This document shows positions 45,001-64,000 of a stretch of DNA of 64,000 nucleotides, piece after piece. The position numbers are program-made. Each line of letters begins with the position of its first letter. Position 1 is the stretch's first letter. Source of the DNA: an uncultured Bacilli bacterium. GTDB lineage: Bacteria; Bacillota_I; Bacilli_A; RF39; UBA660. Location of the stretch: positions 12,980 to 76,979 of the forward strand of contig CARMXJ010000001.1 in the NCBI GenBank assembly GCA_949025205.1, read 5' to 3'.

Positions 45001-48000
45001 ATTAAAATTACTGCTTCTTATGAAATAAGAGAAGGAAATAGTCAAAGAAGTACACTAAGCAAAGAAGAACAAGCTGTAACGAGGAAAATTGATAGTATGA
45101 TATGGGCGTCTAAATTTTATGATTCTATTATCACATTATCAAAAGGACTTACAAAGGATGAGGCAATATATTTAACACATGCCCTTATGGCAGGTAAATC
45201 ACATGAAAGTATTGCTGAAAAAATTGGAATAAGTGTTAGATCAATACAGCCAATCAAGAAAAGTTGCTTAGTAAAGAGCTGGATAGCATTAGAAACATTG
45301 TATGAGGAAGAGAGATAGTCTTCTTTTTTTTGTGTGAGGGGGTGAAAAAATGAGCGATATTGTAAAAGTAACAGTACCAATTACTCTAAAGGAGCAAATT
45401 CGTGATCGAGCTGAAAAGTTAGGAATGACAACTCCAGAGTATTTGAGAACTTTAGCAAGTTTAGATGTTACGACACAGAACTATCAGGAAATGGCAATTT
45501 GTGTTAATCTTTTATATAATCAAATTCTCGATTATCAAAAGACACTTGATATTCATTGTATGCCAGTTCAAGAAGTTCCTATCGTAAAGATTGAAGAACT
45601 TATTTAAAGGGTGCTGACAAAATACTAATAATGCGATATAATCTAAGTATATTTAAGAAGGAGGAATTTTTGTGATAAACAAAAGCAAAAAGCCTCTTGT
45701 AATTATTAGCCTTTTAGTACTAGTAGCCATTATTAGTATATCAGTTATCTTTTATACAAGAGAAACTAAAGATAAAGAACTTTTAAAGGTAGATAAAAAT
45801 TTATCTACTGAAAAAACAGAATTTAATAATGAGGAACAAGATAATATAAACAAAGTAGATGATAGTAAAAATTCAAATGTTATAGAAGAAAAGAAAGACA
45901 ACGAACAAGAATCAAAAACAGAAAATATTTCTATTCCAGAAAAGGAAACTGTAACCAATCAAAATCAAACGAAAACAAATGAAAGTAAAAAAGATAATAC
46001 GCAAAATAATACTTCTAAAAAAGAGGAAATTGTTTCTAAACAAGAGAATCCAACTCTACCAATAGTAGAACAACCCAAAGCATGTACTCCAAAGAAGTTT
46101 ACAATGAGTTTTGTAAGAGCTGATTTTTCATCATTTTCTCAATGTCAAGAAATGGGAGAAAAGTATAGAAAAGGTGGATACAGATATTTTTGCGATAATT
46201 ATCAGGATGATTGTGGTGATACATATTATATGTTAAGTTTAACAAAACCTAATAGTAGTGAAGAATTAGATTATCACAACATCCCATTGCCAGAGATACC
46301 TAACGAATAGGTATTTTTTTAATGGTTAAAAGAAGGGGGAAAATTGAGAGGAAAATTAAAATATTTATTATTTTTATTAATTGCAGTAGCAGTATGTCCT
46401 ACTTTTAATGTAAAAGCTCAAACATATACTGCACAATTTAATGACAAATACCAATGGATTCCCAATACCTTTATTAACAAAACTAAAGGTAGTAATACAA
46501 AATATCAACAACTTTCCATTATTGCAAGAAAGAGCGATAATCAGTTTGTTTATTGTATTGAACCGGGAACTCCATTAGATTCTAATGAAACTTATGTAGG
46601 ACAAGATTACGATCAATCCTATGTAGCAAATATGACGCAAGCACAATGGAGAAGAATTCAGTTGCTCGCGTATTATGGATATGGTTATAGTGATAGCGAA
46701 GTAAATCATAATGATATAAAATGGTATAGTGTTACTCAATACATGATTTGGAAAACTGTACCACATGGATATGATATTTACTTTACTGATAGTTTAAATG
46801 GAAATAGAATTACAAAATATACGAATGAAATAGCAGAGATGGAAGATTTATTAAATAGACATTATGCTACACCAGATTTTGGTGCTTCAAGTTATCAAAT
46901 GGCTATTGGTAACACCTTAAAATTAACAGATAAAAGTGGAGTTTTATCAAAATACGAAGTATCAAACAATTCTTATGTTAGTTCAAGTAAAAGTGGAAAT
47001 GATTTATATATAACTGCTAATGCAGTTGGAAATACTACACTTTCTTTAACTAAAAGAGATGTGAAATATTCTCATCCAACAATTGTTTATGTTAAGCCAG
47101 GTACTCAAGATATTGTACAAGCTGGTAGTTACGATCCTATAGATGTTAATTTAAATCTTAATATATTAGGTGGTAGAATTTCTATTACAAAAAAGGATTC
47201 ATGCGGATCAGTTCCAAATGATGCTTCAATAGAAGGGGCAATTTATGGAATATACGATGTTAATGGAAATAAAGTAACAGAAATTACAACTGATGCAAAT
47301 GGTGAAGCAACATCAGGATATCTTCCAAGTTTAGGAAAATTCTATGTTCAAGAAATTAAAGCAAGTAACAATTATTTATTAGATTCTACAAGATATGAAG
47401 TAGTATTAACAGCAGAAAATACTGCTGCAAATGTTCCTATACATATTGATGTAAAAGAAAATAGAAAAGCAAAAATTTCTTTAGTTAAAACTGATTCAAA
47501 AACAGGAAATAGAGCTCAGGGGGATGCAACTTTAAAGGGTGCCGTGTACGATATATTCGATGTAAATGGTAATAGAGTTGGTTCTATGACAACAGATGAA
47601 AATGGACGAGCTATAAGTGGATATCTTCCAGATATAGGAACTTATACTGTTAAAGAGGTAAAACCATCACAAGGTTATAATTTAGATCCTACAGTTTATA
47701 CAATTATTGTAGAAGAAGATAATACTTGTAATTATATTCCAGTAGAATCAAAAGAAAGAGTTATAACAAATACTTATGAATTTACTAAATTATATGCAAA
47801 AGCAGATACTGGTTTTATGACACCAGAAGTTGGAGCTACATTTGCAATCTATAATTCGAGAGATGAAAAGATTGCAGAGTTTATTACAGATTCTGATGGT
47901 AAATTTAAAACAACTTTACCTTATGGAACATATACACTTCGACAATTAACTAGTACAAATAATTTTAATAAAGTGGAGGATTATCATTTTGAAATCAAAG

Positions 48001-63000: not shown

Positions 63001-64000
63001 TTTGATTTTTGATTTAAATAATAAAATGAATCGATTAATTCATAATCAATATTTAACGAAAAAATTATTGGAGCAATTATTTGTTAATATGAAATTTGCA
63101 AAAAATTCTGATGTTGAGTTAAGTGAAAGTTTAGAAGAATTTAATAACAAGTTTAACAAATATGGAAATAAATTTTTAGGATAATTTATGAGTACAAGAA
63201 TTAAAAACTTTAAAAGAAGGAGTATAAGTATTCCAGAAGATCTTGATAAAATTATCGAATACAAATTTAAATGTTCTGATTATACTTTTATCAATGAAAT
63301 GTTAATAGAACTTTTGGAACTTGGATTGATGAAATTAAGTGATGATGAAGAAATAAAATTTCAAAATGAAAAAATTATCTCTAAATTAGATGAACTAATT
63401 TCATTACAAAAATAATTATGGATTCTAAAGTTGTTTTTATTACTCATCCTTATTATGGAATAAATAATCCTGATAACAATTTGCGAATCTATAAAAAGAA
63501 TCGTAAAACTGATAAATGGTATTTTATTCAATGCAAGGATAAAAAAGAATATAGTAGAGAACTAAAAAAATATGTTTTAGGTTTTTATGATTATAGTCGT
63601 GATGAGAAAAAATCTCATTCTTCTATGATAGGCTATTTTATGGGTGAGAAAAAATCAGATGATATTATGATTCAAAATAAAATGCGTAGAGAAGAAATGG
63701 CAATGTTAAAAGATGGAACATTTATAAAAGATGATATGGTCGAAGATATGAAAAATAATTGGAGTAATTATTTAGAAAATTCTAATACACAGCTTGCTGT
63801 ATTATCTTTATATCAAGATTATGTTGATGAGAATATAAATGTTAAAGATTTGCAAAAAGAGATTGCTACTTCAATACTACCTAAACTATTTAAATATTGT
63901 GGCTATGAAAATCCTAAAGAAAATTTAGAATGGATTGTATCTTTGCATACTGATCGAGAAAATAATTATCACTTCCATATTGCATGGGTAGAAAAAAATA

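Follow-up and report, generated by a model that had tools for sequence, protein, structure and literature searches.

A type IV secretion module cut by a window edge in an uncultured RF39 bacterium is probably the core of a chromosomal integrative and conjugative element

A stretch of 64,000 nucleotides from an uncultured Bacilli bacterium of the RF39 group (contig CARMXJ010000001.1, positions 12,980 to 76,979; hereafter the window) carries, from 45.6 kb to its last nucleotide, a module of type IV secretion system (T4SS) genes and of genes for conjugative DNA processing, with no coupling ATPase and no integrase among them. Is this a transfer system that truly lacks these parts, or one that runs on past the sequence at hand? 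An initial annotation, made from the sequence alone, had left room for a longer element, a non-autonomous (mobilisable) one and a novel lineage. We find that the module is very probably the mating-pore and DNA-processing core of a chromosomal integrative and conjugative element (ICE) of about 45 kb from uncultured low-GC gut Bacilli. The element represents an undescribed, widespread and complete-looking lineage built from known kinds of parts, and it is neither defective nor devoid of a coupling protein. Its sequence holds a relaxase gene with an oriT-like region, a VirB4 ATPase with mating-pore proteins, a type IV coupling protein (T4CP) encoded downstream in the same lineage, and an integrase gene at one end with defined junctions.

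The window has a G+C content of about 27%, and nearly all of its genes lie on the plus strand, as do the features below unless stated otherwise. Profile searches with Pfam and NCBIfam on the window open reading frames (ORFs) found the module genes where they had been placed initially, the weak spots being the VirB3-like protein and the relaxase. A consensus-like promoter does precede the module (45614-45642), but such sites are not enriched over shuffled sequences. The first gene encodes a bitopic membrane protein (45672-46310) with one N-terminal transmembrane (TM) segment, a low-complexity linker and a Cys-rich C-terminal domain. Behind it lies the gene for a surface adhesin of 1245 aa (46344-50081; Pfam SpaA 1e-114, TED 6.9e-9), which consists of a thioester domain and nine SpaA/CnaB-like domains and ends in the sorting signal VPNTLSN, not LPXTG, followed by a TM segment and a basic tail. 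The next genes encode a single-stranded DNA-binding protein (SSB; 50141-50500; Pfam 1.6e-19), a 194-aa protein with no family match and no TM segment (50500-51084), and a VirB2-like T4SS pilin with three hydrophobic segments (51105-51467; Pfam T4SS_pilin 7.5e-7, 29.6 bits against a cut-off of 26.6).

The pore genes proper follow. A VirB6-like polytopic membrane protein of 553 aa with six predicted TM segments (51478-53139) matches the NCBIfam families pLS20_p028 (5.5e-19), MMCAP2_0566 (1.3e-15) and Mbov_0396 (1.4e-13), all below their curated cut-offs; the earlier VirB6 call is upheld to that extent. The 87-aa protein encoded next (53152-53415) has two TM segments and aligns with positions 14-95, the N-terminal part, of the VirB4_plasma model at E 0.0024. 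It weakly resembles a separate VirB3, and occupies the same position as DUF5592 in pLS20-type plasmids. The VirB4 ATPase (53434-55896) is confirmed by Pfam (P-loop_TraG 1.3e-13, AAA_10) and matches NCBIfam VirB4_plasma/Mbov_0397 with 479 bits (cut-off 590); its best tblastn matches are Spiroplasma plasmids, with 25-27% identity over 91% of the query. A membrane-anchored M23 peptidoglycan hydrolase, a candidate for the VirB1 role, is encoded directly downstream (55896-56912; Pfam 3.7e-19). The remainder comprises a small helix-turn-helix (HTH) protein with a run of acidic cytoplasmic proteins without family match (57012-60979), a DnaG-type primase with a CHC2 zinc finger and a Toprim domain (60963-61937; Pfam 9.3e-14) and two small conserved proteins of 72 and 152 aa, again without family match (61934-62617).

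The intergenic region that follows (62618-62851) contains an oriT-like core (62713-62819) that is conserved in ten relatives, its flanks being unconserved. Three features make up the core: an invariant hairpin, TTTCGC-AAGT-GCGAAA, to which covarying pairs add length; another hairpin, in which changes are compensatory; and the 12-mer CATATCCTGTTG, which does not vary. A putative nick would be placed by reference to CATATCCTG/TTG. The hexamer ATCCTG is the core of the IncP/Ti-type (MOB_P) nick region, which offers a lead and not a test. About 30 nt downstream of the core begin two small genes (62852-63415), of 110 aa (62852-63184) and 75 aa (63188-63415), in the position of pLS20 Aux1/Aux2; judged on its sequence, the 75-aa protein looks like a ribbon-helix-helix (RHH) protein.

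The gene behind them (63418-64000 in the window) supplies the first 194 codons of a 480-aa protein (LHTDRENNYHFHIAW) and is identical to P0001, a relaxase of other assemblies. The motif HxDx5HxH is formed by H177, D179, H185 and H187, which are invariant in the close family; remote relatives read HTDTDNLHFH, and full-length ones among them carry SLHTDTDNLHFH. The family is small; at E<=1e-3, 1.84 billion proteins yielded 124 representatives. Its profile-linked relatives match PF18555 (MobL) in 12 of 18 cases, with a best value of 1.3e-13, and PF03432 (Relaxase) in 9 of 18. A profile of the close family gave nothing meaningful against PDB; only the widened family matched, to the entry 9qq7 'Relaxase' (5.8e-5), the matched segment of which agrees at 100% identity with the gene for the 'MobP2 family relaxase' in pLS20-type plasmids of B. 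subtilis. Direct alignment of the close family with RelLS20 by hhalign covered 32 columns only, around motif III, and none of the invariant tyrosines (Y12, Y25, Y59 and Y73) could be aligned to Tyr26 of RelLS20. We call the protein a very divergent MOB_L-type HUH relaxase, a homology that runs through intermediates, the protein itself failing the curated family test.

The absence of a coupling ATPase, first reported for 44.4-64 kb, holds for the whole 64 kb: in a Walker-A scan of every ORF of at least 80 aa, the only three hits were two ABC transporters and VirB4. The 628-aa ORF at 42579-44465 had been a candidate for a hidden T4CP or Rep and was rejected, since a Rossmann domain was all that it showed and a Walker A motif was absent. 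Profile searches recognised no recombinase among the window ORFs scanned either, in agreement with the initial annotation.

Both functions are encoded downstream of the point where the window stops. Exact-sequence look-up in public assemblies placed the identical 480-aa relaxase on 97 contigs; the same kind of look-up found the 75-aa gene in 271 collection blocks and the SSB gene in 189. Three contigs (L043, L044 and L045) carry the identical relaxase behind the same upstream genes as the window, and then a variable slot and a shared second block. The content of the slot differs by contig: DUF3592; PdaC; an Erm-like gene with an ABC-F gene; DUF3781; DUF695. The second block consists of a 73-aa gene, a gene for a tyrosine recombinase of 283 aa, and about a dozen genes for acidic cytoplasmic proteins (a run of approximately 8 kb). 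A further contig, L060, matches this block with 99.76% identity over 6210 nt and continues into genes for a VirD4-type T4CP, a sortase and a serine recombinase of 579 aa. In contigs with the identical relaxase, T4CP, sortase and large serine recombinase lie 10-16 kb downstream, and the suggestion that the element continues past position 64000 proved correct.

Relatives of the element show the same linkage. On a single 31-kb contig, L061, a relaxase 94% identical to that of the window stands between the primase and the second block, which is followed by T4CP, sortase and serine recombinase and then by PBP1, RecU and DivIVA. In distant relatives, whose relaxases are 55-78% identical, the order of relaxase, T4CP, sortase and recombinase is kept. 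The coupling protein contains the Pfam domains T4SS-DNA_transf (2e-58), TraG-D_C and TrwB_AAD_bind; it is also found in contig L062, and it passes the cut-off of the NCBIfam CD1115 family (270.7 bits against 250). The serine recombinases have the architecture Resolvase, Recombinase and Zn ribbon, with or without DUF4368. Among the T4CP relatives P0149 is the commonest, and it was rejected as the T4CP of the window since it comes from a sister lineage whose nucleotide identity is about 70%. P0241, which is the nearest cluster representative for the gene that lies upstream of the T4CP, was set aside because its contig ends too early. The element sortase (L060:9069-9674) has as its best match, below the cut-off, the model for LPxTATN-specific class D sortases, which suggests that a gene beyond the window may anchor the adhesin encoded inside it, the two forming a private sortase-substrate pair.

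The ends of the element were located by comparing junctions. The left end is at 35063, some way upstream of the 45.6 kb at which the module was initially thought to start. There the 5' half of an XRE-type HTH gene (34943-35062; MDQEKFGKFIKDIRKKHNLTQKQLADKYNVTYQAVSKWENG/, the slash here and below marking a junction or nick), whose ORF ends ...SKWENG, is interrupted and forms the left half of attB. It adjoins the attL arm of the ICE, GG/TCTTTCATTTCCCAAATGACACAAC (35063-35090). A look-up with the C5 methylase gene near this end found five different XRE 5' halves, in different neighbourhoods, that all end at KWE(N/S)G codons and join the same GG/TCTTTCATTTCCCAAATGACACAAC. At the right end (L060:11560-11760), identity between L060 and L062 is 97.8% as far as ...GTGTGTCATTTGCACAACGAAAGAGG, within the last codons of the recombinase gene, whose 3' end spans the junction; the shared sequence before the divergence can also be given as ...CAACGAAAGAGG. 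Past this point each contig continues with the 3' half of a different XRE-type HTH gene (...MPDMILIRQISKDFNISLEELF and ...YPEMSNILGLCKIFHCRISDLV). Left and right ends form an imperfect inverted repeat (the right end being CCTCTTTCGTTGTGCAAATGACACAC as reverse complement), with matches at 19 of 24 positions, a pattern that the two arms of an attP used by a serine recombinase should show. Read directly, the left flank of the window and either right flank join into an in-frame XRE ORF, ...KWENG-LNMPDMIL... or ...KWENG-DAYPEMSN...; a restored attB would read AAATGGGAAAATGG and then the right-flank sequence. In window-equivalent coordinates the element spans 35063 to about 80.3 kb, or approximately 45 kb, and ends about 16 kb past the window.

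Other candidates for the boundary were considered. A similarity break at 40841-40849 was rejected as the left end: a repeated cassette site marks exactly where the upstream genes stop, and the true junction is at 35063. A search of the window with the right-end arm returned matches at chance level, yet the true left arm was among them (35077-35087), as was recognised later. The interrupted XRE target is itself preceded, at 34915-34927, by an upstream site of the cassette type described below (ATAGTAATTTGAA plus ribosome-binding site), and the ICE may have landed in a cassette of another, related element.

Sister lineages carry other recombinases and use other targets. One of them, with a DUF4368-type recombinase of 713 aa, inserts in Fic genes exactly at the sequence coding for HPFxDGNGR, in six different contexts (L051-L058, just past the recombinase gene), and the element in L061 adjoins the 3' part of a truncated ZIP transporter gene. 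Comparative junctions show integration apparently directed to the codons of conserved protein motifs, KWENG of XRE proteins and HPFxDGNGR of Fic proteins.

Three other explanations were weighed against that of a chromosomal ICE. The first is a non-autonomous or decayed element, in which the T4SS and relaxase module truly lacks a coupling protein and an integrase and depends on a helper or is a fossil. The absence of both genes from the 64-kb window speaks for it, as does a nonsense codon in the T4CP gene of L060. A short derivative in L065 (4985-10184) points the same way; it has the same left junction, the methylase and two minus-strand genes and then directly the two small genes and the 480-aa relaxase, without T4SS genes, and may be a deletion derivative or a mobilisable element. 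However, identical-relaxase contigs run on to T4CP, sortase and serine recombinase, and an intact T4CP of 764 aa (P0237), 98.5-99.6% identical, is present in two other assemblies, where sortase and recombinase again follow. In addition, no ORF of the module is broken in the window, and these ORFs are 99-100% conserved in tens to hundreds of assemblies. We consider a helper-dependent or fossil module improbable, and the mobilisable element raised by the initial annotation finds no support.

Still less probable is a conjugative plasmid of the pLS20/pCP13 (MOB_L) kind that is not integrated. The relaxase, T4CP and VirB6-like families and the local gene order do resemble those of pLS20-type plasmids, and the genes are nearly all on one strand. 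Against this, both ends are junctions inside XRE genes, in several contexts, with housekeeping genes after the recombinase, and relatives occur in contigs of 119-574 kb and in a chromosome of 1.46 Mb; a replication initiator was not seen. The 45.6-64 kb region gave no nucleotide match by megablast in plasmid and phage collections, including 72,556 plasmids (PLSDB), nor did the relaxase match any of these plasmids by tblastn. A T4SS that has VirB4 alone as its energy source and no dedicated coupling protein, a mode suggested by Spiroplasma plasmids with traE and mob, would suit a VirB4 closest to Mollicutes/Spiroplasma ATPases and a T4CP gene far from the pore genes, and is the least credible of the three given a conserved VirD4-type T4CP in every relative examined that extends far enough.

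Several points weigh against the reading of the locus as a complete chromosomal ICE. The window ends at relaxase codon 194, and the downstream part is taken from other assemblies with identical or near-identical sequence and not from this genome. L060, which alone among the contigs connects the second block with the T4CP for the lineage of the window, has an in-frame TAG in the T4CP gene (L060:7366-7368), which may reflect a true pseudogene in some hosts or an error of sequencing. The 480-aa relaxase has no direct Pfam or NCBIfam match, with neither PF18555 nor PF03432 found even at E<=1, and its AlphaFold2 model (mean pLDDT 48) is too poor to use. No VirB8/NTF2-like protein was recognised among the window ORFs by Pfam, NCBIfam or TM predictions, which bears out the initial annotation, and the predicted circular attP junction (...CAACGAAAGAGG/TCTTTCATTTCC...) was not found as a pattern in viral_contigs. 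Finally, gene content, both junctions and contig linkage can be read from the DNA, from which we infer every activity, including transfer.

For a chromosomal ICE with these parts, we propose the following cycle. The serine recombinase would excise the element as a circle, and the MOB_L-like relaxase, with the two small proteins, would nick oriT at 62.7-62.8 kb. The coupling protein would then pass the relaxase-DNA complex to a minimal Gram-positive T4SS consisting of VirB4, the VirB6-like, VirB3-like and VirB2-like proteins and the M23 hydrolase. The thioester adhesin, anchored by the sortase, would keep donor and recipient together, and SSB and primase would support the single strand. In the recipient, the recombinase would re-integrate the element into another XRE gene.

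The gene order was described initially as atypical. This is correct with respect to Tn916, ICEBs1, pIP501 and pCW3, but the local order matches that of the pLS20-family plasmids, a comparator that had not been considered. In the pLS20-type order, the T4CP (CD1115) is followed by a p028-family VirB6, DUF5592, a hypothetical protein, VirB4, a hypothetical protein (VirB8), a hydrolase, a hypothetical protein, oriT, Aux1, Aux2, relaxase, a TOPRIM protein and SSB. The element shares with it the succession VirB6, small 2-TM protein, VirB4, hydrolase, oriT, two small proteins and relaxase, together with a CD1115-family T4CP, a thioester adhesin encoded in the conjugation operon, an SSB and a Toprim protein, and in both systems the relaxase gene is not beside the T4CP gene. 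The oriT, two-gene and relaxase arrangement parallels pLS20 genes 56-58; in pLS20, two small genes separate oriT from the relaxase gene (PMC5313138, PMC8557374). The pLS20 thioester adhesin is needed for efficient mating, especially in liquid (PMC8092201), and for this reason a mating-pair role is proposed for the adhesin of the element.

The two systems also differ. Unlike pLS20, the element is integrated, with its T4CP gene about 20 kb away beside the integrase gene and with primase and SSB on the other side. It has an M23 hydrolase where pLS20 has a lytic transglycosylase/C40 enzyme, as well as a VirB2-like pilin that is absent from pLS20, and profile searches of its module found neither VirB8/NTF2 nor VirB11, the sole Walker-A protein being VirB4. 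Its adhesin has a sorting signal and its own sortase; pLS20 has neither. Protein identity to the pLS20-type systems is 24-35%, with 24% for VirB4 (E 4e-31) and 32-35% in two segments for the T4CP. The order of the element is a permutation of the pLS20 layout set in a serine-recombinase ICE. The novelty first suggested for this lineage is real in that no nucleotide match was found in plasmids or phages and the relaxase clade is unannotated and very small, but it does not extend to the local gene order, which is known from pLS20.

Other parts are shared with other systems. The best VirB4 model is that of Mollicutes ICEs and Spiroplasma plasmids (Mbov_0397/CDS17), and the VirB6-like protein also matches Mbov_0396 and MMCAP2_0566. 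The equivalog tests for Mollicutes ICEs failed for both proteins (VirB4, 479 versus 590; VirB6-like, 51 versus 70). Mycoplasma ICEs have a DDE (Mutator-like) transposase and no preferred insertion site (PMC6030558). The element departs from Mollicutes ICEs in its serine recombinase, which has a defined target, and in carrying a peptidoglycan hydrolase, a sortase and an adhesin anchored to the wall. Clostridial conjugative transposons, such as C. difficile CTn4-like elements and those with Tn5397/Tn4451 recombinases, have a large serine recombinase at one end, a CD1115-type T4CP, and an adhesin with a sortase. The element has the same three features and a different relaxase (MOB_L-like) and VirB4 lineage.

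The element carries variable genes in a cassette-like arrangement. Two cargo cassettes lie at 39115-40860, an Erm-like 23S rRNA methylase gene (39173-40084) and a gene with an OmdA domain (40280-40840). The sites that bound them are ATAGTAATTTGTA at 39148-39160, with a promoter; AAATTACAATTT at 40183-40194; a site at 40254-40266, with a terminator and promoter; and one at 40849-40860. Before each variable gene, the upstream site reads ...AAATAGTAATTTGTA(A/G)(A/G)GGAGG-N7-ATG and itself follows an extended -10 promoter; within arrays it is instead AAATTAC/AATTTG followed by the ribosome-binding site. The downstream site, (C)AAATTACAATTT, often adjoins the stop codon directly. The similarity break at 40841-40849, which separates otherwise identical contigs, coincides with a cassette site.

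Similar regions occur elsewhere (L051:1-6058, L045:5756-8980 and L046:11444-14573). In the sister-lineage contig L051 about 12 small genes are arranged as cassettes within 6 kb, and the 11-mer AATTACAATTT is present in this array in nine copies, all on one strand, against 0.26 expected. Three comparisons speak for movement of the cassettes. An 'empty' hybrid site, AAAAATAGTAATTT/ATCGAGTAGATC, is found at L051:4935; in the window the Erm cassette sits between those two halves. The Erm-like cassette occupies two slots with 98% identity, one at 39.1 kb of the window and one after the relaxase in L045, and one cassette is 96.6% identical across lineages whose backbones are about 70% identical. The Erm-family methylase scores 211.3 bits against the cut-off of 212 of a broad Erm model, an Lsa-type ABC-F protein scores 477 bits against 380 for the ABC-F model, and the cargo also includes an Lnu(AN2)-like enzyme.

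A possible catalyst is encoded nearby. The 283-aa recombinase (L043:12583-13434; about 2.6-3.4 kb past the window end) is of the Xer type and adjoins a cassette slot inside the serine-recombinase ICE. It passes the XerA-type/integron-integrase model NF040815 (256 bits against 220) and fails as IntI (TIGR02249 integron integrase, 86.9 bits against a cut-off of 265). Its role may be cassette exchange, multimer resolution or another function. The arrangement recalls integrons and Acinetobacter pdif (Xer) modules: genes stand singly and in one orientation, the sites are palindromic, the content varies and includes resistance genes and, for one array, a Xer/integron-type recombinase is encoded nearby; the cassettes are each bounded by sites and stand behind a platform of promoter plus site. 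The sites, however, are about 16-45 nt, of the form ACAAATT-AC-AATTTGT, and correspond neither to attC (RYYYAAC...GTTRRRY) nor to the 28-bp dif-like sequence. In addition, the recombinase of the element is XerA-type and lies downstream of the array on the same strand, unlike in integrons. As single-stranded DNA, the paired sites form a weak hairpin (-4.7 to -5.7 kcal/mol, z -1.8 to -3.2). An excised circular cassette would show the junction ...CAAATTAC/AATTTGTAAAGGAGG....

JGI metagenomes contain homologues of the Xer-type recombinase (60-72% identity), which stand in unrelated contexts, mostly without the cassette motif, and show no linkage of recombinase and array; within 10 kb of L051-type arrays no recombinase gene was seen. 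Alternatively, cassettes may be exchanged by homologous recombination between the repeats. Searchable literature on integron-like systems in Firmicutes and on the cassette motif contained nothing relevant. The evidence leads us to suggest tentatively, at somewhat less than even confidence, that these ICEs carry an integron-like cassette platform undescribed in Firmicutes. Single promoterless genes (Erm-like, Lsa-type ABC-F, Lnu-type) would be exchanged by site-specific recombination at the palindromes ACAAATT-AC-AATTTGT and TACAAAT-AGTA-ATTTGTA behind dedicated promoters, with the Xer-type recombinase of the element as possible catalyst, and the serine integrases would home to KWENG (XRE) and HPFxDGNGR (Fic) coding sequences, many targets per genome.

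The remaining genes of the left part of the element precede the transfer module. The C5 cytosine DNA methyltransferase (35419-36464; Pfam DNA_methylase 5.3e-48; TIGR00675) is read as two ORFs of 291 and 56 aa, a split found in all contigs that carry the gene. Three genes of 178, 228 and 96 aa without family match lie on the minus strand (36535-38081), followed on the plus strand by two HTH_3 proteins, one of 76 aa and one double-HTH protein of 158 aa, that are likely regulators of the element (38181-39089). Profile searches of the conserved accessory genes at 40975-44465 identified a LysR regulator, a NUDIX hydrolase and the 628-aa protein with an N-terminal Rossmann domain. Two small putative regulators (44782-45607) of 178 and 85 aa show weak matches, both below cut-off, to sigma-70 region 4 (E 0.0057) and to NikA-like/RHH proteins (E 0.0012), respectively. 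Upstream of 35 kb, outside the element, are two RhuM-family paralogues about 1 kb apart (30672-33884), GNAT, HAD and aldehyde dehydrogenase genes, and, at 5023-11867, a BceAB-like ABC/FtsX pair, histidine kinases and a VanZ gene.

Relatives of the relaxase are found in metagenome-assembled genomes labelled uncultured Bacilli, Tenericutes and Clostridium sp. CAG:762, in contigs of up to 574 kb and in one chromosome of 1.46 Mb. The host flanks encode PBP1, FemAB and DivIVA, so the hosts have a cell wall, which fits the M23 hydrolase, the sortase and the wall-sorted adhesin of the element. Searchable literature on mobile elements or ICEs of RF39 yielded no relevant paper. The locus provides a complete, widespread conjugative element with both ends defined in uncultured gut Bacilli, and it links pLS20-type plasmids, Mollicutes ICEs and clostridial serine-recombinase transposons, three systems that are usually kept apart. 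For scans made window by window, it is a clear example of a seemingly incomplete system that was cut by the window edge. The MOB_L-type relaxases reach into a clade that current models miss, so that ICE finders based on the relaxase would label such elements 'T4SS without relaxase'. The presence of macrolide and lincosamide resistance determinants as apparently exchangeable cassettes bears on the movement of resistance genes in gut commensals.

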